Assembly (NCBI GenBank): GCA_964035575.1
Contig: OZ037833.1
Location: forward strand, 2,108,001 to 2,172,000
Source of the DNA: Rhynchopus sp. YZ270_cl-10
Lineage: Eukaryota
Direction: 5' to 3'
Length of the DNA stretch: 64,000 bases
Shown: positions 15,356 to 61,289 of the stretch, piece after piece
How the letters are laid out: each line of letters begins with the position of its first letter
Numbering within the stretch: position 1 is the first letter of the stretch
Made by a program: the position numbers and the translations under genes
The notes under the pieces: generated by a model
Told to the model about the DNA's origin: nothing
The model's database searches: none
Seen by the model: the letters and a program-made list of their open reading frames with translations, nothing else

Positions 15356-18300
15356 ATTTATTTGGTGTATTATTTTGGTGTCCCCACCACTTCCTGAAAG
15401 AGATTGTGGGTGGGAGGGAAGGGGAGAGAGAGAGAGAGAGGAGGAAGGGGGGGAAAAAATGATATTTTTTTTTTTTTTGAAACTCAACGTTCCCCCTACG
15501 ACAAATCGTCCATTGCTTGAGGGGGACTTTCTTCTCATGTTTTTTTTTTTTTTTTTTTTTTAAAGTGGCAAGACACTCCCAAAAAGGAGAGAAACGGCAC
15601 CACAGATATCACGGATATCTGGCTGTCCTTCGTGGAGCTACCACAGCACTAAGAAGTGCCCAAAGTAAATAAAAAAAAATGGCACACCCATTTTTCAGGA
15701 AGCGGGGGGGGAATAGCTTCCGAGGGGGGGGAGAAGGGAAACAAAAAAAAAAAAAGTTTCGCCTGAGCAGAACAAAAAAAAAGGGGGGGGGGAAACGGTG
15801 ATTGCAGAAAATGGGGCGAAATGGAGAAGGTGGGTTTTGTTGTCTGATAGACCTCTCGTTCCGCCTACAGATGCGGCAAGAGATTTGAAACAAAAAAGAA
15901 AACTTGTAAGATGAATGTGCTTCTCGGTGCACACACACACAAAAAAAGTATTTCAGGTGTGTTGCACGATCCCATTTAATAAAAAAGAAGCTTTTTTTTT
16001 AGAAGATGGACCCCAAGCCTCTCGTACACTAGTCATCTTGATCACAATCGAAAAATAGAAGAAAAAAAAGAAAATCTGCCCCTTTTGAGGAAGGTAAAGG
16101 ACGCACTATTTTGTTGCTGTTTTTTTTGCATAGAAAATCCCATTCTTTTTTTTTTCCCCCACCCCGTACAGCGAGGAGGGAAAAAACGACAGTGGTTTAA
16201 AAAAAAAAAAATGGGGATGTAATAAGTCCAAATAGAGTGCTGTCGAGGGGGGGAAGAAAACGCAAAACAAAAAAGAGAAAAAAAAATCGTAAGATAAACT
16301 TACGTAAATAATAACTTTTTGAGCGATACCATGTGCTTTCACGCACATGCATCTATAAAAAAAATAGAGAGATCTGAGTTGCGCATACATCTGTGCACAT
16401 CTCCACCTCCAAAAAAGAAAAGTTGATAAGATGAACCTAAGCCTTTCGGACATAGTCACTTAAACACAAAGAACGAAGAAGCATCTGATAAAACAGGCGC
16501 AATTGTAAGCCTAAACCAAAAGAAAAAAAGGGGGGTGGCAAAAAAAGGGGGTGAGAGAAAAAGAAAAAAAACGCGTTGTTCTCACCCACTAAAATGGAAA
16601 GACGAGGGGTTGCGGGAGGAATATTGGAGGGAAGATGTACTGGCCTCAAGGGGCGCAGACATCTTGGGATTTTTTCCTTTTAATTCCCCCTTCATTTTTT
16701 TTTTTTTTTTGTGGAAAGAGGGGAGGGGGACAATCACTCAAAATTTGAAGCTTTGGGGGGTATTTTCAACTTCGTATCCAAGCACCTCTTTTTTTGGTGT
16801 TGCCATTGTGTCGACAATCATCTGTATCTGCACGCATTGCCACCCGGCAATAGTACTGAAATGACATGACGTTTTTTTTTTTTTTTTTTTGTGTGTGTTG
16901 TGTTGTGTCGACAATCGCCTAAAGCACCCTCCTTGGTTGGGTAAGTTAGGGTCTGTACTCAATGTTGGATTTTTTTTTTTGGATAAATTGCTGGAAAAGC
17001 GTAGGTGGCACTGGCCAGCTCTACGTTCCCTTTGTGTTCAACTGAACCCGAGGGGAGGGGGAGGGAACCCAGCTCCTTAGGAAGAATGAAGGAGGAAGGG
17101 GAGGGATCAAACTTGGCGCCATGTAACCACTGCGAATGGTTCACGTTGTCCGTTTCCTGTAAGAAAGAAAGACTTCAACGCAATGGAAAATAAGGGGTCT
17201 CACCACCACACCACCCACTCCACCTACGCCATATATTGAAAAAGGTACTCAAAGATGATCCCAAGCCTGTGCTTACTCACCTTAGCAATTACCCCAATAC
17301 ATAGTGAAGTCAAAGGTGCAAGTGTCGTCACCAAAAAAAAAAAAATGCACCGGAAACTAACGGTTATCAAGAAAGAGAGAGAAAAGAAAAGTCGAGATGA
17401 ACCTCAGCTAACAGTGCTTAGTCACCTAAAAGAAAAGAGAGAGAGAAAGAGGGAGAAAGAAATAAAAGCAACTTGATTCATGCATCCAGCACGACAAAAT
17501 ATGACAAAAAAAAAAAAACAAAAACCCTTAGTGATAATAGGCGCGAATGAAGAGAAAAAATATGAATGAAAGAATGTATGACGTTCACAGGTACATACAT
17601 CTTCAGAAAAAAAATATCAGGAAAACTGTCTATAAGATAAAGCTAAACGTCGCTCAGCTATCTCGAATAAACGGAAACAAAAAAGAATGTGTCTCATTTG
17701 TGACAAAGGCATCTGGTTTTCCCCCCGCAGTTTGTTATCACACAGCCTTTGAAATATGGACGTGGACCTTGCGGTCAAACATCGTTCAAAGTGTAGGATA
17801 ACGTGATGCTTATTTACTTTTGGAGGGGGCTTGTTTTTGCTGTGTAGACATCCGACATACCTAGGAGGGTCTGTACCCTTTTATCTATTTTTTTTTTTTT
17901 GGATCGTTTTGTTTTCTGATAATTTGCTGCAATACAGCTTTCATTCTGACAGTCTTTTTTCGCTGTTTTTGTTTTTGATTTTTGTCTTTTTTTTTGTTGT
18001 TGCATCGACTGTCGCTAACCGAGGGGGTCTGTACTCGATGTCGCAGTATGTACAGACAGCACACCTCAGCCTGAGTATGACAGTGATGACATTAGGGGAA
18101 CTCTGGACTGACACCTTTTTTTTTTTTTTGCTTTTGTTTTGGATAAATTGTTGGAGTGGAGCGTAGTTGCCTCGGTTGTGTTGCCACAGTTGTGCAATCT
18201 CCACTTTTTTTTTTTGTCTCGACATTCCCTTTGGGGTTCTTAAGGAATTGGTATAAATTGTTCAATTGGGTCAACTTTTTTTTTCTTCTTCGTTTTGTCG

Positions 18301-20509
18301 TTCTTTTTTTTTACCGCACTTTAAAATATTCGTCTAGAATAGAGGAACCCGAAGTCCAAATTTATCTCTTAATATATTTCTGGACCAATATTTTTTTTTG
18401 AAGTACGGTAATTTTTTTTTTAAAGCATGCTTCAACACGATATTTAGAGAATTGGAAGTAAACCAACACCCCATCCCTGCACACTCATCCCCTGATAGCC
18501 TGAAAAGACCTTAGCTGTCTCGGAGGCTTCACGGAACGGGATTGGTGCCAGAAGTATGAAAGGCCTTCATTTCATGGCGAAATATCTCAAGCAAAGAGGG
18601 GTAGAGGAAAACACCAATGCAATCGCACAGCCCTCACTCTGGTTATTGAGTCACAGAGAGAGAGCTCGGCTTTTTTTTTTTTTGGTTCGTTGTTTTAATT
18701 TGTTTTGAAAATGGTGTTGAGCTGCTCCATTGCCTTTAGCCCGCCGTCAACTTATGGAATCAGTTGATGGTACAAAAAAAAAAAAAAAAAAAGAATCTGA
18801 CCCTGTGCCAGTTAACTTTCGTTCGTCGAGATTTATAAAAACTGAAAAACGGGGGGGGGAAAGTTGAAGTTCAACTTCAGAAGGGAGGGTTTTCTAAATG
18901 AAAAAAAAGTACGTTTAATTTCTTTTTTTGTGTTCTCTTTTTTGTCACTCCAAGACAGTGTGGCTGCTTGCCTGTCTCTAAGCCCGGGAACTTGCCCTGG
19001 TTGAAGCTGGTTGCACGCTTGAAAACACATCGGGTGGTCGCTGGACGGTACCTGAAGCGCAAACACATGCCGCTCCAAAGACAGAAACAAGCTTTTAACA
19101 CACTACAGGCACAACACGCCACCACTCGTTTTTTTGATCATTAAATGCGAACACGATATAATATGAGCTTGGTGGACGGTGGTTTTGTCACTAGAAGGGC
19201 AGGACAGGGGAGGGCGGGGGGTTTTAGAACAAAGACGAGAAAAGCTGGAAAACAGAGAGATAATATACGCCACTCTCTGCATATACCCAGCTTCCTCCTG
19301 CTTTTTTGGTTTTATCGGTGATTGGTGTGGTGTGGTGTGGGTTCAACGTGAACAGACGCTCGTTCACATTCAGCAAAATAAACGCATCACCGCTAACCTG
19401 GGTGGAACAATGAACTTGAGGGTTTTGGGGGGGTTCTTTTGACTCAGTAGGTGGGTTCTTAGTATTTTTTTTAAAAGCTGAGAAGAGGGAGAGTGAGAGT
19501 GAGAGAGAGTGAGAGAGAGAGAGTGAAGACATCCACATCCTTTTTTTTGTCAGCTTTTAAGAAAGACGTAGGTACGTCAGTAGCAGCCACCACCGAAGAT
19601 TATCTCTGGGAAGACCGCACTGCTAAACCATGTATCTCTGAGTCGCCTCGGGTTCTATCCGGTAACAGTGATCACAACCACCATATGAACGTCGAAACGC
19701 TGCGTTTTCGCGCGGGTGAGAAAAAATAAAAATGTAAGCGTAATGAAACGGTTCTGGTTCTCATCCCGATTAGAGGAAAGTTGCTGTGTTTTTTAATTTT
19801 TTTTTGCTTGGATACAGAGAGAGTTCAAAAAAGCCCTAAAAAAAATCAAGGCATGAATGATCTTATCCCTGCTGTCCAACTTGAGTGGTAGAAGACGGTA
19901 TTCATATGCACGGACATACATCCTATCGTAGATCACCATCCGGCATGTCCATAAGAACAATCCACCTTTTTTTCTCCCTTGAACAAACGTTTGGTTTTCA
20001 GTGCCAATTTCTATCGAAAAGAAAAGAAAAAAGAAAGTTGGGGACGAACCCCTCTAGGAACCCTTTTTTTCCTGCAATTCGGTCGTTTTATGGGGGAGGA
20101 AACCCTCCGTTTCAAAATGAAAATGCGAGAATGCTTTCAAAAGAAACGGACGCTAGGAGAAAAAAAAAAATAATCTATTAAGCACCTCCACACAAGATAA
20201 ATATAGAGTTTGTAATTAATGTGGACACGTCGTCAATGACACGTACTGAACGGATGCAGGTACTGGTACCCCTCCGCCACCAACAGCAAAAATTGCAAGA
20301 AAAAAATTAGTGCTGCGGCGTATAAAAAATAACAAGATTGTAATTGAGCAAAAAAGAAGACGGTGTTTTGGGACCCTCACAATGGACCCCCCACACACAA
20401 CACCAGCCTCATTCTTTGGAACATTGAATATTGAGGACAATACAGTAAAGTTGCTATTTAAAAAACCATGATATGTGTGTTTTTAAAGTCTTTTCTTTTT
20501 GGTAAAAAA

Positions 20510-21844
20510 CCACCTGATTTTTACCCCGCGGATAGGCCCGGATAGGTCCGGATAGGCGCGGATAGGTCCGGATAGGGCCGGATATGGCCGGATAGGACCG
20601 TACAGGCCAAACCCCACGTATTTTTCCCATACGTACTGTGTACTGTGTACTGGGTACTGGGTAGCTACGTTAGAGATCTGTTTCATTCTCGGCAGCAATC
20701 TTCTTCGCAAACTCCAAGACAAAGGGTTGGAAGAGGAAGTCGGATTGGGCTGTGGAAGTTTCGGGCTGCTGTTCCACCCCGCAGATGATCGTTTGTCATC
20801 CGCATGCCCCCAGAGTCCTTCAGCACTCTTCTCATATTTGATAGGGCTTTCCGTTGTGGAGCACATCAATACTGTGAGACGAACCTCATCTGTGCTGAAC
20901 CATTTGCAATGTTCTTCAACTTCCAGTGCAAAATCTTGCGACGAAATTAGCACACCTTTGAACAACTATTCTTCGTCTTTTTTGTCGAAAAATAGACCGC
21001 ATCACGTTCTGCACACCTCTGGATCTTCTTCGCTACGTTAGTGCGATACGCGCAGAGGGAGGGGTCCACCCCTTTGCTCCCGTGAACTTGTACTGTTTGT
21101 CCGATGTTTTCTTTGGCACAAGAGTGATGAACGAGGTTTGAGTGAGTCCAAACACATCCTTCTCAGGCAAAGAGTAATAAGAGGTTGTGAGACGCTCGGG
21201 ACGCTGCGAATGCAGCATGCAGAACTGAAAGGCAGTGTTAAACCAGAAGATTACAGATGGCGGGTCAGACGCTGTGTCACTTACCCCATGCATCGGTAGA
21301 TGAGAGCCAACACCTTCAGAGCAGTGAACACAACACTGGGCGCAAAATTCATGTGCCAAAAGGCAACAAAACCCTACAAGGAGTACCTAGTACACAGTAC
21401 ACAGTACACAGTACACAGTACACAGTACACAGTACACAGTACACAGTACACAGTACACAGTACACAGTACACAGTACACAGTACACAGTACACAGTACAC
21501 AGTACACAGTACACAGTACACAGTACACAGTACACAGTACACAGTACACAGTACACAGTACACAGTACACAGTACACAGTACACAGTACACAGTACACAG
21601 TACACAGTACACAGTACACAGTACACAGTACACAGTACACAGTACACAGTACACAGTACACAGTACACAGTACACAGTACACAGTACACAGTACACAGTA
21701 CACAGTACACAGTACAAAAATAGTTTTTTTTCTGACTTTTCGACCCGCGGATAGGCGCGGATAGGTCCGGATAGGCCCGGATATGGCAAGGATAGACCGG
21801 ATAGGGCCAAAAGCCGGTTTTTTTTTTGGGGCAAAATCAGGTGG
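20510..21844. mobile_element. TIR element (CCACCTGATTTT) with GGATAGGnCC subterminal repeats and an internal (GTACACA)n array
   Basis: TIR pair with direct 10-mer arrays near both ends. Confidence 0.75.
21390..21716. repeat. (GTACACA)n, ~46 units
   Basis: Perfect heptamer tandem array. Confidence 0.98.
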
Positions 21845-21965
21845 AAAAAAATAAAATACATAAAAAAAAAATAACAAAAACGTGAAGCTGATAAAGAAAA
21901 ACACTAAAATGAACAAAAAAATATATCGATCCCTTTGTAGGACCTATTGTTAAAAAAAAAATATA

Positions 21966-22092
21966 GTAACTCTGATAGGTAAAAGGAAAAAAAAGTTTTT
22001 CGTTGATTGCTCAATTACCCTGTTGGAGGGGGTGATTGGCGACCGTATCGGAAGAACTATTTCTCCTTTAAGCTACGCTTGTAGGTATAAAA
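21966..22092. repeat. Dispersed ~130-bp repeat; second direct copy ~59020-59163
   Basis: ttcgttgattgctcaattaccctgttggagggggtgattggcgaccgtatcgg... is nearly identical in both copies. Confidence 0.9.
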
Positions 22093-22152
22093 ATAAACGC
22101 GCTATCTGCTCTGTATAAGTAAATGTCACCAATTAAAATATTAGATTCATAT

Positions 22153-22725
22153 GGGTGAATGCGTAAAACCCCCCCTCCCCTAAATTTCACTACGATTTTT
22201 GATTTTTTTTTATTTCTGTTGGGAGGCTATGAGAGGTCGACCCTGCGGGGGTGTTTTGGGGTCTTTTTTATGATGTGCGACGCTTTTTTGGACATGAACG
22301 TGTATTGTGGCCCGTCTTACCACAGGTTTCACACGTTTTATGTGAAACTGAGGAAACTGAAGAAATAAAAGACCGCGTTCTCTTAGCCATGCGGTGAAGG
22401 GCCTCTGTCATCTCTTCTTCTTCTTGAGGGACAGGATCGTGCTCCTCGTCAGAGGAGTCACCGATTATATCGTCCTCGTCACCGATCCTCGTCAGAGAAG
22501 TCACCGATTATATCGTCTTCTGGGGGTAGGGAGTAAAAATAGCCTAAAAACACGCAAAAATACCCCAAAATGGGTCAAAATAAGTATATTTTTGCCCAAA
22601 AGCCCCCAAAACCCGCCGGAAAATGGTTTTGGGGGTGGTTCTGGGCAGTTTTCGGCGCTGATTTCTGGTAAAACCTCAAAAATCGTAGTGAAATTTAGGG
22701 GAGGGGGGGTTTTACGCATCGACCC
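22153..22725. mobile_element. Deleted DNA transposon (MULE-like) with ~50-bp TIRs and a zinc-knuckle remnant
   Basis: TIR GGGT..ATGCGTAAAACCCCCCTCCCCTAAATTTCACTACGATTTTTGA. An internal minus-strand fragment (22268-22504) ends CETCGKTGHNTRSC (CX2CX4HX4C). Confidence 0.8.
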
Positions 22726-24104
22726 AATATACTTTCAATTCACAGAATTGAAAGTATGTGAGAGGGTCAACACATGCACCCTTTCTTAAAATAAAAAAAA
22801 GGCAGGGATTCTTACAGACGGCACACTTCATCCATAAAAGAGTGTGGCAGAGAAATGCTAATAGGAACTCTGGTCTGACCCTTGTCCTGTTTTCAAAATA
22901 GTGTTCGGGAGTCCAAAATGGATCTGTCCATGACGAGGAGTCAGAAACATCCAAAAATTTAAAAAAAAGAAGAAAAAACGAAAAGAAATAAAGAAAGAAA
23001 AACAAGCAAGACGAACCCAAGCCTCACAATGCTTAGTCACCAAAAAAAAGAAGCAACGCGTTTAGTTTTTTCCCCTTTTTTCCAAAAAGGAAAAACAATG
23101 AATTCGTAAAAATACTCAATATCAAAAAAAAAAAAAGAAGTAAAAAAAAATGTATCCCATTCTGCAAGAAAAAACGGCAGAACAAAATCATCCTCGCAAA
23201 AGACACGTAGGGGGGAGAGATACTCGCTCTTGGCGAGAAGTTTATTTTATTTTATTTTTTTTAGTTTTTTTCGCATGTGGTTGTGATTGTGTGATTTTTT
23301 TTTTTTTGTTTTTGTTTTTGTTTTTGCTCACTGAACATACTAATAAAATAGTAAACTGTGGGATTGCTGTGGATGATGGAATGACCATCTTGTGAGTGAA
23401 TGTGAATGTGTGTGAGTGTGGTATCTCTTGCGCAGAACGATACCTAATGCAGTACAAAGCCTACCGATGCGTTTGGTAAGTTGCGTATGTGTGTGTGTGT
23501 GTGGGTGGGTGTGTGGGTGTGTGGTCAGTGTTTTGACCAGAATAACTATTAAAGAAAATGACCCAAAAAATATCCCCAAAGAGACAAGAGGATCACAAAA
23601 AAGAAGAAAAAAAGAAACGAAAAAAAAAAAAGAAAGTTTTGTAAGATAGACTCAAGCCTCACCGTGCTCAGCCACCTTCAAAAAAAAAAGAACCTGGCCT
23701 GACAAGTGAAACCTTTTTTATATTGCAACCCATACCGTATTCGTAAAGGGGTTAAAAAAGTAGGGAAGGGGATTAAAAGATGAATGGGCCTACCTGCGCA
23801 TCTTAAATTCGAAGCTGAAAATGGGTGCAAAAAAAAAGAGAAAAAAAAAAAAAGGCCACCATCAAACAAAATGGGTGATAAAAGTGGTGCCAAGGTTTTC
23901 AGGTTTTTTGGGAAAGGGAAGAATGGGACAATCAGATCGCAAAACGGTTTTGAATTACGATGCGTCGTCTTATTGGAAAGAAGGAAGTCAGTATTGCATG
24001 ACAATGTCATGGTGTCAAGGGCGATAGAATTTGAAGAGAGTTTTTTTTTTGTGGTGCAAATGTCTCTTTAGACACGTGCACCAACAAAAAAAAGCAAAAA
24101 AGCA

Positions 24105-24136
<32 letters not shown>

Positions 24137-24268
24137 AAGAAGAAGAAAAAAAACGGTAAGATGGACATAAACCTCAGTGCTTAGTCTGATTAGATTACTT
24201 AATGTTCCCTCAGTGCTTAGTCACCTTTTCTAAAAGAGAAAAAAAAAACCTAAATGAAAAGAAAAAAG

Positions 24269-24303
<35 letters not shown>

Positions 24304-24974
24304 AGCGAAGGTACATCCCGCCTCTGACGACGCAGGGCACCGGAGAAAGAGTGGAAAAATAAAAAAAAATAAAAAAAAAGCAATAAAATAAAACTTAATG
24401 AAGATGCAAACGAACCCCCACAACAACAAAAAAGGAGGGGACGCAAACATCTGATCTAAACGGGATGATATATGAGATAAAAACTGAAACCCATTTTTTC
24501 ACGATTTTTTTTTTTTTCCTCTTCGGGATCAAGAACGAGGTAACACTTTGCTCAAAGCTTTGTTTTTTTTTAAACAGGAATCTGCTGTACACTTGGGTAC
24601 AACAAAATTCAAGAAAAAAAAATACACCTTCCCTTGGCCAGATGTTCTTCCACCTACAAGGTAAAAAGGAGCGTTCCATGCCAAAAGGAAACACTGCAAA
24701 CTTTCTAAAAAAAAGAGAGAAAGAAATGAGATTCAAGACATGCAGAAAAAGCAGCGCAGGGAGAAGGGCAGCGATTGAACCACGGAAAACGCAGGTGGAT
24801 TTACAGTGAGGGTTAAAAACATTTTTCTTTTTCGGACGGGGGTTTTTTTTGTTTAAAAATGCTGGCTGGACAAAGTGTGCGCGTTACACACACCCTCACA
24901 CCTCCACATGAGGTGATATTTATAAAACAAATCGTCCTCGCCACCCCCCACTACCCGTTATGTTTAATTCTATT

Positions 24975-25549
24975 CAGGGGACTTTAATATGCCGGTGTGC
25001 CGGTGTGGGATTGTTGGGGGGAAAAAAAGAATAAAAAGGCGGATTTCTGATTTTTTTCTCTCTGAATTTTATCTCCTCATACAAGGTTTTACCGCTCCAA
25101 CCACATCTGCAGCGGTTTCGTATGTGTCCTCAGAAAGACCAATCGGTCCGTTAAATCAAAAGAAATAGGAGAGTCGACGAAAAAGGCGCCATGACTTCCA
25201 CATAAATTTCTTCGCCCTTGCAACTTCGCAGTAGAACTATTACTTTTCACCGTGGCAGACAAGATACTGCGTGTAGTAGATGCCGCTGGTTCGCGGAAGG
25301 GATATTTTTCTGCGTTCGGAGTGGTACCACCCCCTGTGCGGAGGAGGAAGACGGAAGTCCGCGGCGAGTTCGTCAAATGCCCCCTTTTTTTGGTTGGCTA
25401 TAAAAACGATTTTACGTCACAATTTGTAAAATGTTGTGTACCGTGGCTTCGCCAGATTGGTGCCATATGTTGACGAGGACGAAGGGGGGAAATTTTTGCC
25501 TCACACTGGCTTTTTTCCCTTCAAAACCCCAAACTATTAAAGTCCCCTG
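24975..25549. mobile_element. MITE family 2 (TIR CAGGGGAC), copy a
   Basis: caggggactttaata...tattaaagtcccctg, flanked by a TTCTATT duplication. Confidence 0.85.
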
Positions 25550-26200: not shown

Positions 26201-26234
<34 letters not shown>

Positions 26235-31923: not shown

Positions 31924-32221
31924 CAGGCACTCCGCTAGGTACTAAAGTTCTGTTGATTGTCAACAGAACTTTTTGAAAATGGGGGAAAAAAGAAAAAAAA
32001 AAAAAGTTCTGCTAAGTGGTTCAGACCCGTTCTACCTGTCAAAAAAGCTCAAGAGAAGAAGATATGGAGAGGTGAGTGCTTAAACGTCCCAAAAAAGTCA
32101 AAATCGGGCGTTGGTAAAAAAAAAAGTTGCGTACCGTGCGCCTGCGGCGCAAGCATGTACCCCACCAACGTGGACCATCAACAGAATATTTTCAAAATCG
32201 GAAATCCTAGCGGAGAGCCTG
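31924..32221. mobile_element. hAT-like MITE family 3, copy a
   Basis: TIR CAGGCWCTCCGCTAGG and 8-bp TSD GAAAAAAT. Confidence 0.9.
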
Positions 32222-38812: not shown

Positions 38813-38856
<44 letters not shown>

Positions 38857-49190: not shown

Positions 49191-51320
49191 ATCTTTCAAG
49201 AAAAAAAAGAGAGAAAGAAAAGAAAAGAAACGAGAGTAAGAGAGAGAGAGTGAAACGCAATTAAAATGGGAAGGCTTTTTCCACTGTAACCTACTAATGA
49301 ACGGTTGACACTAACTGTCAGTATTATCGATAGTCGTGTCCTCTGTTGTCCCTTTTTTTTTGTTGTTGTGCTGACGAAGTGGGGTTCCTTTCCTCACTGC
49401 AACAGAGGCAGTTTCCGTTGTTCATCTGTGTGGAGGTAGGTCATTCGTAAAAAGAAAACCCCGTTCAAAGATGGTATCAGAAAAAGCAAAATAAAAAAAA
49501 GAGAAGTTGGTGTAAAGTGACCTAAACATCTTGTGTTTTGGTCACCTAAAAAATAAAAAATGTTGCAAAAAAAATATATAAAAACCCACACAAAAGAGAG
49601 AAGAAATTTGAAAGACGAGCTCTGACCTTGCGGATAAACAATATCTATTCAATCAACCGATCAGCACACCTGCCAAAAGAAAATTTGTGGAGGCAGGATC
49701 AGTGGTGTTCTTTCTGCGAATGATGGAGGTAGAAAAGCGGCAAAATAAAAAAGAGAGAAGTTGAGAACATTCCATATTTTTATATATTTGAAAAACAACA
49801 GTCGAAAAAAAAAAAAAAGAGAAATAAAATACCGTATCCATTCCCTTTTGGTGAGCAGGGTGGGTATATCTCATTTCAGCTGAGAGGCAAAAAAAAATGG
49901 ATATCTTTGAACCCTGATTTTACCTTGAGAGGGAAGGGAGGGGTGGTCAATCATCGTCTCGCATCAACAAAACTAAACAAAGAAAACTTGGACGGATGAA
50001 TATGTCTCACATACACATGCAGCCATCTTTCAAAAAAAAAAAAAAGAAAAAAAAGAAAAAAAAAATTCAAAAAAGAAAGAAACTTGAGAGTGCAGTGTGC
50101 CTGTCACGCACATCTAAAAGGATTTGCGTTAACGGACTGCAAGACTCAGGTGTGTCTTATATTGGAATGAGTGTGAGAGCGCGCGAAGAAAAGAAATGGG
50201 CAAGATGAAAAAGCAACGAGGCAGTCACCTTCACCACAAAAAAAAACAACCAGGGGTCTCAACCTGTCGCTAAAAAAGGTAGACAAAAACTGTGGACAAA
50301 TTTTTTTGTCTTCCGCTAGCGACCCCTGAAAATCATTAAAAAGAAATTATTTTTTTTTGAGTATTCCCCACGAATGTTCATAACACAAGTGTAGCCTGGT
50401 ATGAACTGTAAGAGAGGTTTTATTTTGCAAGAGAAATTTCGTGAAGCGAATCAAGTGGAGAAAAAAAAGAGAGAAAAAAGAAAAAAAAAACTTGAACGAT
50501 GAATGTGCCTCGTGCACATTCAAAAGACGAAAACGATAGAGAGAGAAATGGAAATAAAATGAACCACCCATGACATAAATATATATATTTTTTTTTTTCA
50601 ATCTGCAGCATAATTGCATTATTAAGACAACACACAAGACACGCACCTCTCTCTTCCTCACACAGAGCAAGAGATTTCTTTTTTTTACCAACAGTTTCTA
50701 TTTTAGTTTGGCTTTTTCGATGTTGAGAAGAAAAAAGGGGGTTAAAGCAATGCTCAAAAGAAGTTTGAACGAAAGAGACGATACTGAAAAAAAAAAAAAC
50801 GGGGGCTATAGTAATGGATGCAAAACGCTGTTTAGCATGCAACCACTCAACAGCTGAACACAGCTACAACCGTTGGTAGCCACAACATGCTCGTTGTTTT
50901 GAATTTTTACTTTTTTTTTTTTGGAGTAGTGTAGTTGCCTCGGTTGTGTTGCCACTGTTGTGCAATCACCACTTTTTTTTTTTTTTTTGTGTTACACCAA
51001 TCACTTTACACCTACTGGCATAAAGATCAGTACTCAATGTCGGCCGAAGCCTTTGTACTACGGAAGGTATAGACGCAGATCATCATCTGCCCCCCCCTTT
51101 TTCTTTTACACAACAACAATAACCAAAGGACCTGGTGTGACTGCAGTCTAACAATATTGGCACCCTTTGTTTTGCTACCTTAGGCGACATAATTAAAAAT
51201 GTCTGTAACACTGTTTTGTTGCTGCTTTTTTTTGGAGGGATATTTGTATCAACAATACTCACAAAGAGGTGGTTCAATGTCACCCAAAAAAGGGGCTCGG
51301 AACCACTTACCTACGACATA

Positions 51321-51449
51321 TAATGGCAGTATTATGATGGGATGCCATTTGGAATACACAAAATGCATCACAATAAACGTGTATTGTGATGTATTTTGAT
51401 GTATTTTGCGTATTCCAATGGGCTCCTCATCACAATACTGCCACCATTA
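51321..51449. repeat. ~130-bp foldback palindrome
   Basis: ggcagtattatgatg...ttggaatac / gtattccaa...catcacaatactgcc. Confidence 0.75.
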
Positions 51450-53159
51450 ACGACACACCTTATCCGACAAAACTGAGATCAGATTTTTTTTCCAAGCTCA
51501 TTCCTATAGCTAAACCAAGGCTGGGGGGGATGAGAGAGGGTGATGGGAGGAATAGTGGGCTTGGGGATTATGCCGTGATCAGGCAAAAAAAACCCAAAAC
51601 ATGAAGAAAAAAATGACACATAAACCGCAATTTTTTTGAGGATTTTTTTTTTGGGATAATTTGAACGGGAAGCGAGGGAAAACAAAAGACAACCAAATCG
51701 TGGTGAGGATATTTTGAGAAATCCTAAATAGGACAGGGGATGGGGGATGGTAGGGAAAATAATCTTGGGATGGGATGTAGGGCTGGGGCGTATGATTACT
51801 TCAAGGGGAGGGATGGGTGGGGGGGGGAGATTTTTTTTTGCAAGAAAAATAAATAAAAAACACCGTGCAATAAAAACCTGCCTGAAAGCAAGGCTCTTTG
51901 CAGAGAGAGTGTGGTTTTTTTGTACCACTGAATATATAAACATAGACCTGCAAGGGAGAGAAGAAGAAAAATATAAAAAAGTTTGGGAAGATAACCTCAC
52001 CGTTTATCTCCGTAAGACAAAGTGTGAGTCCCCTAAAAATGTTCCCTTAGTCATATTTCAAGAGAATGGCTGGTAACAAGGTGGAAAATGTGCCCCTTTT
52101 CCTGGGGATGCATTTTCCTTTATATTATGGGCATCCACACAGGGGGAAAATCTATTTTATACCACAGAGATCCAAGACGGGGGTTTTTTTTGTGAAATTC
52201 CGAAATTCGTGATGATTTTCATGGTGTAGATGGATTCATGGATTGAAAAAATTTTGTAAGATGAACCTAAACATGCTTTGGTCACAAAATAATTCCTTTT
52301 AGATTGAGCCTCGGTACTGCAAAAAAAAGTCGAGAGCTTTGCAAGGGTGAAACAAAACAACAAAAAAACAGAAAAATCTTCAAAAAATATGTGCCTCGAG
52401 GGGCCTGAAATAAGAAATGGTGAGATGAGCTTAAGTCTCGCACTGCTTAATCATCTTGACAAAATGGGGGGTGAGGGAGAAAGGGAAAGGAAGCAGGAAC
52501 TTCACGCTCCCGCCGTATCTGTGTAACCTTTAAACAATACAAAACAAAAAAAAAACTTGAATAAATGAGCCTCGCGGGGTAGGGGTTGTAATATGGCTTT
52601 CGTACACTTTCGTCATCAACAATAAAACACTGAACAAAGAGAATTGAACGTGCCTTAGTCACCTTAAATAAAAGCAAATGGCAGGGAATAATAAAGGTGA
52701 TGACAATGAAACCGTCGCACTATAAAAGGGGGTTTTTTTTTTGAGTAATGAATGAAATGAGAAGTACGGTGAAACCAAGAGAAAAATACACAAATTTTGT
52801 TGTGAGGCCATAATATCCTTTTTTTTTCTCCATTTTTTTTCGGGTCAGGGTAACACCCGACATCACCCAAGACCCCCTGCATGCGTAAACATGGTATATG
52901 TGCCTCTCCTCCGACAGCAGTTGACACCTTGCCTGCATCGAATGTCTTCTGTTGTCGAATAGAAAAAACAACACAACCAAAAATCCACATTGTCTTCAGA
53001 AGGTATACATTCCGTGTGTGAGGCAAGTCAGAAAGGGGGGGGGGAAAGGTGGCTTTTTTAGTGCAAAGACCACAGAGGTGGTCCCAAAGAACAGGAAAAG
53101 AAGTTCGGGAAAGCGTTGTACGTATGTGCGTTTTTTTTTTTTTTCTTTTGTGTGTGTGT

Positions 53160-53457
53160 CAGGCTCTCCGCTAGGATTTCCGATTTTGAAAATGTTCTGT
53201 TGATGGTCCACGTGGTGGGGTACATGCTTGCGCCGCAGGCGCACGGTACGCAACTTTTTTTTTTTTTCAACGCCCGATTTTGACTTTTTTGGGACGTTTG
53301 AGCACTCACCTCTCCATATCTTCTTCTCCTGAGCTTTTTTGACAGGTAGAACGGGTCTGAACCACTCAGCAGAACTTTTTTTTTTTTTTTTTTTTTCCCC
53401 ATTTTCAAAAAGTTCTGTTGACAATCAACAGAACTTTAGTACCTAGCGGAGTCCCTG
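53160..53457. mobile_element. hAT-like MITE family 3, copy b (inverted)
   Basis: Same TIR with 8-bp TSD GTGTGTGT. Near-identical to 31924-32221. Confidence 0.9.
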
Positions 53458-55818
53458 GTGTGTGTGTATGTGTGCGTTGTGCGTGGACTGTGTGTGTGTG
53501 GGGGAGGGACAGCGGGGGAATATCAATTTCGTTTTCCTCTGTGTACGGCGAGCAAAAATCATAACAAAAATACAAAAAAAAAAAATCCAGTGGCAGTCAG
53601 ACGAGGCTCAGCGAAAGAAATTTTCGTGTAGGGTGTTGGTGGTGAACTAAAAAAGGTTGAACATGTTTGTAAATCAAATACCACAAAAAAAAAATAAAGC
53701 CCACGCCTGTCTTCGAGTATCAGCCTGCCACAATCAACCAAAAAACAATTCACTCGATAGTGAAAAATATTTTTTTTGACCTCGAATGGTATCTCTCCCT
53801 TCGTGATCGTGGATACATTTTCTTTTTTTTTGCTGCTAGTCGAAAACGAATGAAAAGAAGTGAAAAAAAAAGAGAAAAATAGGGGAGCGGGAGGGGGGGG
53901 TTTGAAAATGCTTTTGTTATAGCTTGTACTCTTTGTTTTTGCTATTTTGTATTTGCGTTTGTTTAGCTTTTTAGATCCTTAACAACAAAAATAGGGGAGC
54001 GGGAGGGGGGAGGTTGAGCTAATACTGTGCCACCCAGCTCGTCACTGAGCGAGTAAGCAATAATAATGATCATAAAACGTGAGATGAACGTGCCTCTTCT
54101 GCACATACATCTATAAAAAAAAATGTGCTACCTAGTCATCTAGGTGGCGTAAGATGATCCTGAGCCTTACAGAGCGCAGTCTCCAGGGGGAAAAAAATAG
54201 AGGGTGCTTTGTTGTTGTTGCCGAATAGGTTGAAAGATTTTTTTTTTTGATAAATTGTTGGAGTAGTGTTGCCTCGGTAGTGTTGCCACAGTTTGTGCAA
54301 TCTCCACTGTCCAAAAAGTTTTGATTTGGATGACCCGAAACCTCATGTGCTCACTCATCACTCCCCTTGATCACATTGATAATAGCACAGCATCAGTTGT
54401 GCGAGAAAAAAAAAATTAAACCAGACGAGCAAAGCCCAAAAATCACACCAGGGACTTAATATAGGGGGTATTTTATTTTGCACGAGGAAATCGCGCACAT
54501 ATCCACCTAATTATATTTTTTTTCAAAAAAAAATCGTGAACCATCCTAACCACGACGGGGGGGGGATATGGGGGGGGGGTATTTTGTAATGAGTGAGAAT
54601 TTGAGGAGGGGAGCTTTTTGAGTACATAAAAAGGTAGTAAAAAGATTGTGTTGCAATTTTCCTTGCGAAGGAGGGGGTTTGGGGTTGGGGTTGGGTTTGG
54701 GAAAAAGAGGGAAAGACTTTCTTTTGAATCCTGTTATTTTTTTATTACGTTGTGTCAACACAATTTTTTCCCTGAAGAGGCTATCAAAAGCCGGAACCCA
54801 GGGTTTGCTGTGTGCTACTCATGTTGTCCGAAACCTTTGTACGACGCAAAGGCAAGGAACACGATTTTTTTTTTTTTTTCAAAAAAAAAAAAAGATTGGC
54901 GAGGTTAATGCTTCCTTCAAGAAGCACGTTCAGGAGTGGACAATTTCGGGAAAGAAGAAAAAGGGTTTTTTTTTGTAAGATGAACCTAAGCTTCTCTGTG
55001 TTTAGTCACCTTAATAAGTGGTGGTCGATGCAGGCACCTTGGATGCAGCGCAAAATAAAAGTTGCGATGCAAACGTCTCACCGGACACGGACAAGATGCA
55101 GGCACCCAATTCTCGAGAAAGAGAAATAAAATAAAATAAAATTAGAAAAACTTGGTACGTTGAATCTGAACTTCTGCCTATCGACAAGAAGTAGTCATCG
55201 ACCTAAATAAAGAAAGAAAGGTATGGGGAAGTGAAGGAAATACCACCTCAAACAAATTTTTTTAGCAGGTGGTGGGATAAACGTGCTCAAACCGAATGAC
55301 TCGGGGTAGCAAAAAAAATAATACTAAAAGAGAGAAAGAGGGAAAGATTTTTTGTTATTTTATTTTGAGACGATTTTCGTATTTTTTTTAAACCCTTTCC
55401 GGACGGGAGGCACTTTTATGCCACAAGAAGAAACGGCCGCCGTCCGGAAAGGAATAAAAGAAACGGTGTTGCTTTGAGTACCCCTATTTTTTTCCCCTTC
55501 CACATTGCTGTAAAATGCCGTTTTGGATGACCCCATTCAGGTTCACCCCTTTTTTTACTAACGGGTCTCCACTAATAAGCACACAATGCCCACTGTCCAC
55601 AAAACGCCTCTCCAACGCAGTTTTGCTGTTACGATAAAACAGAGACTGTGGATACACTTTTTTTCAGCGCAAGGCTTATTTTCAGACCACATTTTTTTTT
55701 ATAAAAGGGTCGCTGCCTTTTTTTTGGGGATGATCGACACTTTTGTCCAATAAAAAGCAAGGGTCAAGGAAAGAATGGGGCTTTTTTTTCCTTTGTTTTT
55801 TTTTTTTTCTCTTGAAGG

Positions 55819-56370
55819 CAGGGAAATAGCTTGGTTTTCCTCCAAAATCAGGAATTATGCGAAAACGAATTTTTTTTCCGCCCGGTCGAAAGCGGTCGTT
55901 GCGCTTCGCGCAAGCCTCCCTGAGTGGAGAGGCGAAAGGTCAATTTGCGAGATAACCAAAAACGGAATGTAATCCCTTATTACGGAGCTTGGTCTTGCAC
56001 CTTACGTTCCACTAACCGTGTGGAAAAAAATAAATGGCGCCGCAGGCGAAAAAAAAATAGGGTACGGTGTAAAAATGCTGGTTTACAACCACACAGTCAC
56101 TCAACAAACCCTTTTTTGCGGAGCAAAAAAGGAAAATGGCGCCGCAGGCAAAAAAAAAAAAATTAAGGGGTACGGCGCATCTGCAAGCGCAGCGAGCGAA
56201 AATTTTAAGGTTCCATCATTCCAGTCATCTGGGAGATCTGGGGGTCCGCGGGCGAGGGGCCCCCAAAAGTGCCCAAAAATCCCCTCTTTTTTTTTTTTTT
56301 TTTTTTTTTCCCCCAAAAAATCCAGAATTATGCGATGTCGCATAATTCGGTATATGGAGCTATTTCCCTG
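55819..56370. mobile_element. hAT-like MITE family 1, copy b (inverted)
   Basis: Same TIR, 8-bp TSD CTTGAAGG. Confidence 0.92.
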
Positions 56371-57487
56371 CTTGAAGGGTTTCTTTACAAAAAGAGAAAA
56401 TATCATTAGTGCACTGCTTGGGTATTACTTGCAGTATCCTTAGGGACCTGCAGTGTTCCATGCAACTGTGCAGAACTGAAGAGAGAGAAAAGAAAGAGTT
56501 TTTTTTTTGAAATACAAAGCCCTCTAGAGACAGTGTACCTCGCGCGCGGGGGGAAATAAGGTTTGGTAAGAATGTACTAAGCCTCTTGCTTAGCCACCTT
56601 CAAAATAAATAAAAAACTCATGGCGGCAAAGGGGCTGAGAACGACAAACGGAAACGCAGTGCATATTCTCTCCGATCTATTATGTGTTTTTGCACAATAA
56701 TAATATAAAAACACGTAATTATGCATTTCTGCTCTTTGTCAACCCAGAGGGGAGGAACGGGTTGTGAACCCGGTGTATAAATAAGTTAAACAACGAATAA
56801 TCCACCAATCCCAGGAACCTTTCATAAGACAACTTGGCTTAGAGGAGTACGAAGGATAGGGGAGTCGGGAGGTATCAAGGAGGCTGACATATATAAAAAA
56901 GAAGAATAGGAAAAGGAATAAGAAAATGAAGACCAGGATAAAGAAAAGAAAAAATTGGCAATATCTTAAATGTAACGGACGACGGCCCGTTTGCCCACGG
57001 GTCGTGTCCTGTTGTACAAAAAATATGCACTAATATTTTGTTGTAGAAAACAGTAACGCCTCTCCCCAAGGCGCAAATTTCCATTTTTCAAGACTATGCG
57101 TCTCTAATCCTCACGGAGAGGGAATTGCAACACAATAATATTATGCATGGATGTCCGAAGTAAGTAAAACAGCAAAAAATCGGCGTCTTTTTGGACCAAA
57201 TTATCACGCAGGAAGAAAAAAGATTTTTTTTTTTTGTAAGATGAACCTTCCCGGTGCTTGGTCACCTTCGGGAGGGCCTCTCAAGTAACTCATACAAATA
57301 AAAAAAAAACAAAGAAAACTTGTAGATGAATGTGCCTCTGCACAAACAAATAATTTCACTTGAAATACAAAGTCCTCTTGTGACAGTGTAAGCGAACATA
57401 AATGAAAGGTGGTGAATGTTAGGTACAGGATCAAGTTAACTACAGCCGCCACACCAACGTACCCCACCCCCCCCTTTTTTTTCCACA

Positions 57488-57636
57488 CACGGTGGACTCT
57501 TCCTGGAAAGGGCAACTTAAAAGGAGGTAGAACGGGAGGGAGTGCCAACTCCCCCTAGCCTAAAGGGGAAGTATCAACTCCCCCTTTTTGGAACTCCAGA
57601 ATAAAGTTGCCCTTTTCCAGAAAGAGGTCTACGGTG
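57488..57636. repeat. ~150-bp foldback MITE
   Basis: cacggtggactcttcctggaaagggcaactt / aagttgcccttttccagaaagaggtctacggtg. Confidence 0.7.
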
Positions 57637-60120
57637 CAAAATAGAACTCAACGGACGCACCAAGCTTCGTTGTGTCCCGTAGAGGGTGGTATCAGGGTGA
57701 TTTAACCGGCAGTGATCGTTTTTTCCTTGTCATATGACACAATCAAGTACCTTCTTACCATTGCCCTTCTGAAAACAAAAAAAAAATTGTAAAAATGTGA
57801 AGGGAAAAAAAAAAGAAGAAGAAAAACGCTGTGGAGCGTGGGTGTGTGAGTGGTGAATACATAACGCAGAAATGGGCTAAAAACCCATTCTAAACCAATG
57901 CTTCTTATTCCACTCTGTTCGAAGGAGTGTCATTTATCTGAGTATTTTCGCCCCAGAAAGCAACGCACAACAAGATGAAGTGATACCAAAAAAGCAACTG
58001 AGGGGAGAGATGTGAGCGAACCGACGTGGTTTGCCATTCCTCTCGTGTACATCATTGTGAAAAGGGGGGGCAAAGGAAAGGGGGTGAAGAGAGAGAAAAA
58101 CTTGAAAGATGCAATACAGCTCTAAAACTAATGAAAAAAGGAAAAAAGGAATAAATAAAAAAACGCAAAAAATAAAAAATAAAAAACCCATATTTTTTAT
58201 CTCTGGTTTTATTTCGCGCTAGTTGGTGGTCCACACAAAATAATGAAGTTATTTTGATGATTTTTGAAAAGAGGAAAAAAGAAATACGGATAGCCACGGA
58301 ACAGAGGCACACTGTGGGTAATCGATTGGCTCTGCGGACATTTTTTTTTTGTTGTTGTTTTATTATTGAATCGAGGTTCTACACTCAATGTTCGCTAGGA
58401 AGGTGCTTATAGAACGGCACTGTATCACTATCACCTTCTTTTTTTTTGCCATTCTGAAAAAAAAAAAAAAAAATCGTATACTTTCAGGAGAATGCAAATC
58501 AGTTGAGAAGGGTACAACACCAAAAAACAAATGCAACCTAAGAGAAAACTTCGGTAAGATGAACCTCAGCCTCGCAGTGCGCAGCCACCTGGTTCTCATT
58601 GAGAAACGGGCGTCATAAATACCATCATTACATCTGGCGTTATATCAAGAGAAGTGTTGAAAGTGCAAACAATACCAAATGATAAATAATGGTGTGGCTG
58701 AAGGGGGCTGATTCGCACTTTTTTTTTGCGCATTTTTCCGCACTTTTTGCGCCCCCCCCCCCCCCCCCCCCTCCATTCCGCCACACCATATAATTACCTT
58801 TTAACAATTTGCTATTATGGCATTTGGTTTTGGCCCTTTTCTGCACCAAATTTTGAACCTCCAAAAAAATTCATTTTGATATAATACCCTACCTATTCTC
58901 ATATTTCACTCTTAAAATAGCTCTGCACGACTCTTGCATACACAATCGTAATACTCCACGCGGTAGTTTTCATTCTAGAGGAGTGACCTTTTTTTTGTTG
59001 AGAACATTCGCAGGGGACGTAGTAACTCTCATAGGTGAGTAAAAAAAGGAGGAAAAAAAAAGTTATTTCGTTGATTGCTCAATTACCCTGTTGGAGGGGG
59101 TGATTGGCGACCGTATCGGAGGAACTATTTTCTCCTTTAAGTTACGCTTTGTAGGTATAAAAACATCACATAATTAGCATACAACGGTTCCGTTCGTGAT
59201 AGGGTACCGGGGTGGAGACCCAACCATCTGTTTCGTGGTTTACATCTGATAAACACCCTTTTTGTCTATTTTTTTTTTGACATTTTATTGTCACCTTTTT
59301 GTATCAAGCACACCTTTTTGTCAAAACGATAGGTTGCTTTCTGTACAAAAAAAAAAAAAAAGAATCCTGAAACAGGGTTCTATACAGCATTCCGCCCACG
59401 AGGGGCTGGCTCGGTCAGAATCGGTTTGACTCGGTCAGCCAAAAAAAAAATTTCCCCCCTCCACAGGGAATTATATAGGTTTTGGGTTTTTTCGCTGAAA
59501 CTCCGTCGAGCCCGGGTCCCCAACCTAGCTCAAGTTGGGGGCCTCCGGCGGAATGTGAGAATTCCTCGGTTATCCAACTGCGGAGTTCGGCACTTCATTG
59601 AAGCAATTCGTGCACCAGGCACAAGTGGTACACGAATTGTCTGTAGCCTCAGTACATTTATAACAAAGAAAGGGCGGTCACGGCACCCAAAGCGAAGCCA
59701 CGGTACGCAACATTTCTAAAAAAAAGTTGACACAAAACGGCACTGTCGCTGGTAATTGTGGTCAGCTTCCGTAATTTTACTCCCCTGTTTTTCTAAAACG
59801 AAAGTTTCTGGCGAAGCCACGGTACGCAACATTTCTAAAAATTGCGCTTAAAATTGCACATTTTTACTGCAAAAGTATATCATGGGAAGGGTGGGTTGCA
59901 ATCTTGCGCCGCAGGCGCACGGTACGCTACTTTTATTATTTCGCCATGCTGCATGCTTCCTTTTCCTTCGGCGTTTGACCAATTGAGTCGCGTTCTGGCT
60001 GTGACGGGGTCACTTTGTTCATGAGGCCATTTCTGGTCACTCTCAGAGGCTCGTGGGAGGTACCAAAATTTCCACCCCAAGATTTGGAAAAAAAATCTGA
60101 GATTTATAATAAAAAAAAAA

Positions 60121-61078
60121 GGGAAAACCTTTATTCGGCTCACAAAAAGTAATTTTTCCATCATTCGGCTCACAAAATAAAATTTTTCCATCATTCTATC
60201 AAAGTCACTATAATTTTTCCTTCATTCGGCTCACAAAAGTTAATTTTTCCACCATTCTATCAATATTTTGCCAATTTTTCCATCATTCTATCAAAGTTTT
60301 TTTTTTCACTTTTTCGAAGAAATTTTTGCCGCTGGAAAAAAAAATTTGGGTGGTTTTTTGAGGAAAAATGGGGTCATTTTTTTTGCATTTTTCGAAAAAT
60401 TTATAGTTCTAGGGTCACAAATTACACACTGTTTGCTAAACATGCAAAGACAAGTGGTCACTGGTGCCGAGTTTAACAGCTTGGATGACCTAAAGGAGAC
60501 GGTAACGTGGCAGTCCTTCATCCTCCACATTTTTCCTTCCGCGTCTCGAACCGCACAGGCACCCGAATGACCCTTGTGTGCCGGTTCCTTATGTGCATGG
60601 AGGGTGTGTGCGGTGCAAGACGGTGATGGTTGTCGCATCACCCAGCACGAGCGCACCTGCACCTCTGACGATCACCCTGTTGCCAACACAGGAATCGTCG
60701 GCGCCGTCGCCTCCCGGACCTGCGATAACGTGAGAAGTGTATCAAACTATGGTGCACATAGTGTGATTGCTGACATGCGTGACCTTCGCCGCAATAAGTC
60801 ACCTACGAATTTTCCCTCCCACAACCTATAAAAACGGGCAAAAAATCCTACCCAAAAATTTTTTCCAGTGGAAATATTTCCTCGAAAAAGTGAAAAAAAA
60901 AACTTTGATAGAATGATGGAAAAATTGGCAAAATATTGATAGAATGGTGGAAAAATTAACTTTTGTGAGCCGAATGAAGGAAAAATTATAGTGACTTTGA
61001 TAGAATGATGGAAAAATTTTATTTTGTGAGCCGAATGATGGAAAAATTACTTTTTGTGAGCCGAATAAAGGTTTTCCC
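60121..61078. mobile_element. Mutator-like element with ~240-bp TIRs
   Basis: GGGAAAACCTTTATTCGGCTCACAAAA... is mirrored at about 60840-61078. The element is inserted in an A-run. Confidence 0.9.
60442..60831 (+). pseudogene. MuDR-type transposase N-terminal DNA-binding domain remnant
   Basis: GAEFNSLDDLKETV...*...CAGSLCAWRVCA...ITQHERTC matches the G..F.S...K / C.WR..A / HTC pattern. There is an in-frame TGA at 60568-60570. Confidence 0.7.
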
Positions 61079-61254
61079 AAAAAAAAAAAAACGGCTGACC
61101 GAGTCAACGTCTGACTCGGTCAGACCGACCGAGTGACCGGGCCTATATAGAACCCTGCTGAAACGATTGTGTACACCTTACTGTGCACACAATGTTTCGT
61201 GATAAAATGGTATCTATAAAAAAAGGGTGTGTCAAAAGAAAAGAAAAGGTTCAT

Positions 61255-61289
61255 AAGATGAACCCAAGCCTCTGGTGCTTAGTCACCTT
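61255..61289 (-). promoter_or_regulatory. Family A bulged hairpin (representative of ~45 co-oriented copies, 7.7-62.3 kb)
   Basis: Sense strand AAGGUGA-CUAAGC-ACCAGAG-GCUUGG-GU-UCAUCUU. The repeat is directly visible; the regulatory role is inferred. Confidence 0.6.

Follow-up and report, generated by a model that had tools for sequence, protein, structure and literature searches.

A 64-kbp stretch of the genome of the diplonemid Rhynchopus sp. YZ270_cl-10 (contig OZ037833.1, positions 2,108,001 to 2,172,000; here called the window, to which all of the results refer) carries about 80 short hairpin repeats of 30 to 65 bases in its non-coding DNA, falling into nine families, and different hairpin scaffolds among them present the same loop motif, GC-A(C)...GAG-GC. 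Every gene identified in the window is encoded on the minus strand, which is thus the sense strand, and the repeats are almost exclusively in the sense orientation. The reading to which we give most weight, while stopping short of calling it probable, is that these hairpins are promoterless, non-autonomous micro-retroposons that would be transcribed as passengers, with loop and stem both read by a mobilizing protein of the long interspersed nuclear element (LINE) type. Coordinates are window positions, and features are on the minus strand unless noted otherwise.

The loop motif was proposed in an earlier, sequence-only reading, and all five of the strings that it quoted are present, every one on the minus strand: AAGC-ACCAGAG-GCUU at 61280, GAGC-ACGGUGAG-GCUU at 23669, GUGC-AGAAGAG-GCAC at 54104, GUC-ACGAGAG-GGC at 31070 and 10698, and CCGAGGCAA, which occurs five times. 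Its central claim, that different scaffolds share the motif on the sense strand, is borne out above chance. When GCA..GAGGC must be closed by two more stem pairs, the non-coding sequence has 14 sense occurrences and one antisense, compared with 1.0 ± 1.1 (maximum, 6) in 50 block shuffles, although the 14 sense occurrences (seven in family A, three of the A2 type, three in family B, and one without a family) are non-independent. A stricter hairpin scan yields 13 sense and 6 antisense occurrences (mean of 2.0 in 20 shuffles), and in a test using the anchors only, GAG is present in 21 of the 38 inner segments on the sense strand and in 3 of the 20 on the antisense strand, with mean folding z scores that are alike (−0.7 and −1.0). 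A permissive folding scan, with ∼1,280 loops per strand, is too noisy to be of use (A..GAG loops, 18 versus 5; any GAG end, 60 versus 48). The motif had been placed between 18170 and 61289, which is too narrow, as the families reach down to position 897. There is also a lone hairpin-like stretch at 33726 to 33765, about 130 bases past an RRM gene stop codon and outside all of the families, with a loop ending in GAG and an ambiguous predicted fold.

In family A hairpins, AGGUGA and UCAUCU form an outer helix that includes a fixed G·U pair, followed by a 2-base bulge, an inner helix, CUAAGC/GCUUAG, and a loop of mostly 8 bases; 3′ of the hairpin are UAC, AA(C/G), and then a U-run. Pairwise identity averages 65% with a maximum of 86%. 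A covariance model of the family gives 27 matches below an expect value (E) of 0.003, all sense and 25 of them training copies, and its three plus-strand matches are the opposite strand of sense copies. The full AC...GAG loop does occur in family A, but as a minority form, with 15 of 25 loops ending in GAG, 16 starting with A, and 10 starting with AC. The GUGC..GCAC example, formerly assigned to family A, belongs instead to a separate scaffold, A2, which keeps the CAUCU strand and has a replaced inner stem (52% mean column identity). The 3′ tail described as common to families A and D is likewise present, but in A it is largely the 3′ strand of the outer helix rather than free, because UCAUCU pairs with AGGUGA, and the full UUCAACUCUAC tail is found in only two of the seven D copies. 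In family B, AC and GAG face each other in an internal loop beneath a GCAA hairpin, and its copies (e.g., 41869 to 41930) contain AUUGCAC, which we take to be the U1A-binding sequence of U1 small nuclear RNA. We also note that the 5′ arm of family A, AG|GUGA, which is paired inside the hairpin, complements the U1 5′ consensus of kinetoplastids (PMC11613528).

The conservation pattern distinguishes the mid-loop, not the GAG, from the stems. In all 34 family A matches, the GAG columns have conservation values of 0.79, 0.85, and 0.78, compared with 0.82 for the inner and 0.90 for the outer stem; in the 25 full-length copies, from which the nine partial matches are left out, the values are 0.76, 0.88, and 0.80 versus 0.81 and 0.86. 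Over all 34 matches, GAG (0.78 to 0.85) is thus no better conserved than the stems (0.82 to 0.90), which, within the window alignment, is the outcome that the earlier reading had named as its refutation. Conservation falls to 0.33 to 0.60 in the mid-loop beside it, which is far less well kept than GAG (P values of 4e-7 to 1e-3 relative to the stem rate). Free variation is confined to the mid-loop and to the second base of the bulge, both far more variable than the stem rate, and the A and C of the loop are somewhat more variable (P of about 0.015). GAGG is kept across differing stems, in all five B copies, all seven D copies, and four of seven H copies.

A common loop could arise either from one RNA-binding protein recognizing all of the scaffolds or from descent from one ancient element; these readings are compatible, and this interpretation, proposed in the earlier reading, is supported in part. 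Alignment of the families against dinucleotide shuffles (30 comparisons, with uncorrected P values) supports descent for A and A2 (P = 0.0025), weakly for A and D (P = 0.03), and not for A and B (P = 0.67), such that a single ancient element is upheld only within the A group, whose loop these alignments suggest is likely inherited. A and A2, and probably D and H, would form a single lineage whose stems have been rewired. As an independent instance of the motif, only B is suggestive; it carries GCAC..GAGGC in pairing register, an arrangement seen in 0.17% of B shuffles, and may have the motif through either convergence or descent too old for alignment. B also aligns to C, at a P value of about 0.01 and in both orientations, and the CUCG core of C may be an inversion of the CCGAGG of B; the possibility that C is a circularly permuted form of A found no significant support (P = 0.22). 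The lack of alignment between A and B also speaks for the scarcely credible explanation that the common loop is chance plus inheritance within one family, with the B match a coincidence. GCAC..GAGGC occurs in order in 1.3% of B shuffles and about nine families were inspected, both in its favor, but the in-register chance of 0.17% per family is about 1.5% over those inspected, and the motif count of 14, its non-independence notwithstanding, stands against the 1.0 in shuffles.

The bias in orientation is near-total. Sequence-only family models, seeded with minus-strand copies and searched against both strands, give sense/antisense counts (including weak matches to E values of 0.5 to 1) of 34/0 for A, 16/0 for A2, 6/1 for B, 4/0 for C, 6/0 for D, 10/0 for E, 7/0 for H, 2/0 for F, and 3/0 for I. 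An unseeded self-comparison agrees, with direct/inverted matches for the short families of 8/0 (A), 13/0 (D), 10/0 (B), 3/0 (C), and 2/0 (E), whereas in the largest long-repeat group 17 of 26 matches are inverted, and long inverted-repeat transposon relics lie both ways. All 69 of the copies listed by hand are sense, and both coding sequence and the transposon relics, which lie in either orientation, are free of them. There are two possible exceptions on the plus strand, a 5′ half of family B with 14 exact bases (29529 to 29563; E = 0.58) and a GC-AACAGAG-GC hairpin followed by UUCAUCU (49393 to 49427).

These placements are also what would be expected if the sense copies are cis-elements on pre-mRNA or in long 3′ untranslated regions (UTRs), at which a host RNA-binding protein reads GAG on a stem, with mobility having only seeded the copies and the host retaining them, as in the protein option of the earlier reading; we consider this a realistic possibility, though a somewhat unlikely one. 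The best argument for it is the near-total sense bias, which goes beyond the approximately 4-fold sense enrichment of the SIDER retroposons of Leishmania (PMC2689281). The survival of GAG through stem replacement, a mild clustering of copies (18 gaps of 150 bases or fewer versus 11.4 expected; P = 0.016), and the proposal that the long 3′ UTRs of Diplonema papillatum are binding platforms (PMC10161547) point the same way. However, GAG is no better conserved than the stems, 10 of 25 loops have no terminal GAG, several copies are truncated, and a family C copy sits in a cis-intron. Copy density varies from 0 to 3 per kb, unrelated to stop codons or start sites, and the transposon intervals from which the copies are absent were hand-drawn. 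Both this and the micro-retroposon reading can be true at once, and the putative binder of the loop may be the mobilizing enzyme rather than a host regulator.

The hairpins are predicted to fold as RNA. Mean folding z scores for sense and antisense RNA are −1.4 and −0.2 for family A and −0.9 and +0.8 for family D, and under DNA parameters D gives no fold (z = +0.5). For both families, sense RNA folds better than antisense RNA or DNA does. At the fixed wobble, 22 of 27 complete cells are G·U, 5 are A-U, and none is G-C. Covariation in the 25 full-length A copies is modest, its score being matched by 4 of 500 shuffles and the compensated cells by 22 of 500. Across all 34 A matches, 291 of 340 cells are paired, whereas two neutral models predict 277.6 and 281.7 (P = 0.001 and 0.006), and there are 11 compensated double changes compared with 3.5 and 4.5 (P of at most 0.002); the neutral decay was simulated from one master, ignoring subfamilies, and the alignment trims ragged ends.

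It is distinctly unlikely, but conceivable, that these are instead DNA-level elements, such as very short miniature inverted-repeat transposable elements (MITEs) or ends of the repetitive extragenic palindromic (REP), Helentron, or other HUH types, which are palindromic through template switching and fold as RNA only incidentally. Family A has inverted outer arms of 6 to 8 bases with a fixed G·T, conserved bases continuing 3′ of the arm, and the A2 outer arms are also inverted; copies of both lie in T- or A-runs. Two inverted loops (an A copy at 50197 to 50233 and an H copy at 61311 to 61338) and one arm-perfected copy are seen, changes for which there is mutational precedent (PMC8794818). However, there are no inverted matches within the short families, in contrast to the largest long-repeat group, TA is on both sides of only 2 of 25 A copies, and GTAG, as an antisense start, is at the hairpin foot of 1 of 25. 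Folding as DNA is weak, and both the wobble and the 2-base bulge have survived, although arm correction would be apt to erase them. An A pattern that leaves the loop free is nowhere matched exactly in contigs from viruses, metagenomes, or GTDB, nor is a B pattern in viral contigs.

Dispersed copying has occurred, by whatever chemistry. The B copies, 3 to 36 kb apart, have 92% mean column identity and unrelated flanks, and identity among 30 A copies is independent of distance within the 64 kb (Mantel rho, 0.005); local duplication is ruled out by these flanks and this independence. The families have discrete ends and unrelated flanks, with copies in T- or A-runs. The longest match between the flanks on either side of a copy is 6.8 bases compared with 6.3 ± 0.2 when permuted (45 copies), a resemblance as after insertion into a low-complexity run. 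The 3′ tail AA(C/G)UUU follows 20 of 58 copies versus a 2.3% background; B, C, and E are followed by A-runs, and A, A2, and D mostly by AA(C/G)UUU and U-runs.

As micro-retroposons, the sense copies would need no promoter, because they would be carried along as passengers of polycistronic transcription. A reverse transcriptase of the LINE type would be provided in trans; it would recognize stems of any kind but be specific for the A..GAG loop, prime within an A/T run, and insert a copy. Selection on being copied would keep the stem and GAG while freeing the mid-loop, and some of the copies may later serve the host, as has been proposed for Leishmania SIDERs. Recognition of this kind has a precedent in the zebrafish LINE ORF2 protein, which reads the stem generally and the loop specifically, tolerating stem swaps but not loop swaps (PMC4176376), and D. 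papillatum is reported to encode LINE-like and SLACS reverse transcriptases and to have unidirectional gene clusters (PMC10161547). The sense enrichment of the Leishmania SIDERs, about 4-fold, is a further precedent (PMC2689281).

Several observations weigh against the micro-retroposon reading. Families C, E, and F have spread without a GAG loop (GAGG in none of three, one of nine, and none of two copies, respectively), E shows no strand preference in folding, and several copies are no better folded than shuffles (z scores of −0.3 and −1.0). Outside the fixed wobble, G·U does not significantly exceed A·C (24 to 13; P = 0.10). Template switching can produce compensated pairs and loop inversions by mutation (PMC8794818), so that, given the inverted loops and the arm-perfected copy, the excess of pairing need not reflect selection. 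Families A, A2, and D end in U-runs rather than A-tails, and no clear target-site duplication is seen, the small excess in flank matching being of low complexity and explicable by shared local composition. Neither a partner LINE nor a reverse transcriptase was matched among 128 screened frames in the window. Target-primed insertion does not by itself explain the near-total sense bias, T-runs (164) and A-runs (140) both being common on the sense strand.

A role of the hairpins as splicing or processing signals, with the tail acting as a branch point ahead of a pyrimidine tract or the 5′ arm as a 5′ splice site that is masked, is most unlikely. Of 25 A copies, 14 open with AG|GU, the AGGU being intact, U-runs come after the tails, and three copies, of families D (2954), A (7798), and H (933), are followed closely by a pyrimidine tract and CAG upstream of a gene. 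Against this, A2 copies mostly start with AGAUG and have no GU, and there are about 80 copies for eight genes. The first AG after 44 A and A2 copies is scattered from 0 to more than 100 bases away, and is YAG in 25 of the 44 versus a 44% background, leaving the branch-point reading of the tail unsupported.

The family A hairpins include the best model match (54972 to 55014), the ACCAGAG loop example (61250 to 61291), the ACGGUGAG example (23638 to 23680), a copy with an RNA folding z score of −4.0 (10067 to 10109), one with a short AGAG loop (62256 to 62294), and a diverged one (61756 to 61798). Others are at 58551 to 58593, 56563 to 56602, 54322 to 54363, 54146 to 54188, 52417 to 52459, 49508 to 49550, 46814 to 46856, 36057 to 36099, 31237 to 31277, 30961 to 31003, 27191 to 27234, 23003 to 23045, 17389 to 17430, 17247 to 17285, 16423 to 16464, 15999 to 16041, 12424 to 12465, 8975 to 9017, and 7757 to 7798. 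Some copies are incomplete, with a deleted 3′ inner arm (57233 to 57270) or loop (52253 to 52290), a 3′ half only (37264 to 37288), a partial 3′ arm (26894 to 26933), a 5′ part (25749 to 25795), a 3′ part (10417 to 10458), or otherwise partial (31343 to 31389). More altered forms are the inverted-loop copy noted above, in which the loop segment is reverse complemented on the A scaffold (a weak model match; E = 0.28), an A-type scaffold with an inner stem of an A-run and a U-run and AGAG still on top (43260 to 43314; E = 0.33), an A-derived hairpin with a 5′ arm that is almost the exact complement of the family 3′ arm and a GGGGAG loop (31692 to 31733), a copy with an internal 15-base duplication (24153 to 24229), and a diverged A-like copy (17629 to 17666; E = 0.065).

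Family A2 includes the GUGC-AGAAGAG-GCAC hairpin (54076 to 54115; RNA folding z score, −3.2) and hairpins at 57318 to 57352, 50490 to 50526, 49988 to 50032, 32763 to 32797, 31803 to 31845, 29379 to 29416, and 15904 to 15946, with weak matches at 35987 to 36024 and 29590 to 29632 and A2-like copies at 28708 to 28752, 23773 to 23808, and 12491 to 12524 (the last a weak match). Family D copies are at 57360 to 57391, 56509 to 56540, 31038 to 31078, and 9781 to 9818, with a diverged copy added by eye at 8750 to 8779; the two with full tails are at 10667 to 10708, which has a 5′ extension common to the copy at 8779, and 2913 to 2954, upstream of a pyrimidine tract and CAG before the open reading frame (ORF) at 2050 to 2841. 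Family H has a D-like architecture (61550 to 61595), with further copies at 24303 to 24341, 10584 to 10630 (with an extended inner hairpin), 3835 to 3869, and 897 to 933, an H-like weak match at 55052 to 55106 (E = 0.79), and the H scaffold with a reverse-complemented loop segment noted above (a weak match; E = 0.23).

Family B, comprising an outer stem, the AC/GAG internal loop, the inner GCAA hairpin, and an A-tract (54249 to 54308), is also found at 50915 to 50973, within an A-run, and at 41869 to 41930, 26235 to 26297, and 18142 to 18205. The loops of families C, E, and F are mostly CUCG, UUCG, or CUAG, presumably stable RNA tetraloops. Family C has an outer stem common to B and a CUCG loop (45047 to 45093), or a UUCG loop (10280 to 10326), and its third copy (4504 to 4550) is inside the GT-AG intron of the TTC26/IFT56 gene (4668 to 4481). 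Family E has a fixed outer scaffold and an exchangeable apical stem (36327 to 36364), the latter being long at 16904 to 16958; other copies are at 32941 to 32976, 27434 to 27483, 17995 to 18034, and 9927 to 9964, the last adjoined by a partial copy (9885 to 9914), and E-like copies are at 17837 to 17876 and 16804 to 16843. Family F is at 54806 to 54845 and at 50981 to 51061, where its UUCG hairpin runs on into one of E-like form, with a B copy immediately following. The stretch from 50911 to 51061 thus has modules of all three kinds in succession, with an A-run preceding B, which suggests composite elements. Family I is a same-strand repeat of about 100 bases with weak folding (59066 to 59163, 21998 to 22093, and 45767 to 45804).

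The genes identified in the window code for a GAF-domain protein, an unknown ORF, TTC26, a rhodanese, an adenylate cyclase, an RRM protein, and two CCCH proteins. TTC26/IFT56 has 87% protein identity to its D. papillatum counterpart and 92% to a EukProt record, which identifies the host as a diplonemid, and the all-minus layout fits unidirectional gene clusters of the type described in D. papillatum (PMC10161547). The A model gave nothing below an E value of 0.2 in five other TTC26 loci, which at 37 to 51% identity are too distant for diplonemids. The three longest gene-free stretches (44651 to 62916, 35141 to 43658, and 15361 to 33891; about 18, 8.5, and 18.5 kb) each come after an RNA-binding-protein gene (CCCH, CCCH, and RRM, respectively) and may hold very long 3′ UTRs. 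The CCCH zinc-finger paralogues (43659 to 44650 and 62917 to 64000) have 77% identity over 142 bases.

The Pfam scan covered 128 further non-coding frames of at least 75 residues, F- and K-rich frames being excluded, and gave three matches below the cut-off and no reverse transcriptase or transposase, including none of the HUH type. Terminal inverted repeats of 57 bases at 22152 to 22726 enclose a frame with a weak zinc-knuckle match (E = 0.008), and this is probably a DNA transposon relic. Long repeats at 7811 to 8384 and 55799 to 56370, and at 31924 to 32250 and 53131 to 53457, are 92 to 95% identical in opposite orientations and served as the orientation control. A 240-base inverted repeat (60121 to 60359 and 60841 to 61078; 96% identical) flanks about 480 bases and is nested within another repeat, and arrays of a 7-base unit, GTACTGT, are in transposon-like stretches at 11250 to 11640 and 21380 to 21720, with a short inverted copy at 20633 to 20663.

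Gene regulation in euglenozoans is thought to be mostly post-transcriptional. What binds the long diplonemid 3′ UTRs is left open in the D. papillatum genome paper (PMC10161547), and the window repeats supply concrete 40-base baits with a three-base mutation for this question of protein binding. We found no description of such repeats in diplonemids in the literature covered, which did not extend to the D. papillatum supplement on UTRs and repeats (PMC10161547), and the latter may bear on their novelty. If mobile, the repeats would be retroposons cut down to a recognition hairpin, and their strand bias would go beyond what target-primed insertion accounts for. As host elements, they would instead amount to a cis-code, dense and structured, in a relative of trypanosomes that is free-living. 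A broader picture, which we regard as doubtful, is of a population of promoterless RNA hairpins of 30 to 65 bases in a diplonemid genome, each scarcely larger than a stem-loop for protein recognition, that rides on polycistronic transcription, inserts only in sense, exchanges stems around GC-AC/GAG-GC, and, at one to two copies per kb, doubles as a genome-wide post-transcriptional code.

The repeats lack defining features of classical short interspersed nuclear elements (SINEs), SIDERs, MITEs, REPs, and H/ACA RNAs. They share interspersed copies, discrete ends, and unrelated flanks with classical SINEs, but not a tRNA-, 5S-, or 7SL-derived head with an internal RNA polymerase III promoter; no tRNA was found, nor a tRNA-like head in the 30- to 65-base elements. 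MITEs of the Tc1/mariner type have a TA target duplication and both orientations, unlike the repeats. H/ACA or small Cajal body-specific guide RNAs have a pseudouridylation pocket and an ACA/AGA box, of which the A copies have only the 2-base bulge, with ACA at the stem foot in 4 of 25; Rfam gives no matches at the gathering level, three chance-level matches off the copies, and none on the copies at E values up to 1. Bacterial REPs and bacterial interspersed mosaic elements are short extragenic hairpins with internal mismatches, in several families and sometimes clustered; unlike these, the window repeats have one orientation, GTAG in 1 of 25, a weak DNA fold, a eukaryotic host, and no GTDB match. 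The SIRE repeat of Trypanosoma cruzi, which is found in T-runs and transcript UTRs and is several hundred bases long, is a lead only.

The closest likenesses are to retroposons. The stringent 3′ stem-loops of LINEs and SINEs (ZfL2-1, ZfL2-2, and UnaL2) similarly have a bulged stem, a specific loop, and a short 3′ tail, with the stem exchangeable and the loop specific (PMC4176376), although the whole window element is about the size of the stem-loop alone, has no tRNA-like head, and has no partner LINE identified in the window. SIDER1 and SIDER2 of Leishmania are likewise non-coding interspersed repeats of a polycistronic euglenozoan, lie mostly along transcription, and are reported to have no clear target-site duplications (PMC2689281, PMC2424063). 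They are about 550 bases long, about 4-fold sense biased, and form subfamilies by chromosomal proximity (PMC2689281, PMC2424063), whereas the window repeats are single hairpins of 30 to 65 bases, shorter than the 79-base trypanosomatid retroposon signature, nearly totally sense, and without a proximity effect within 64 kb. In the way that they would work, the repeats come closest to SIDERs pared down to a recognition hairpin of the LINE type.

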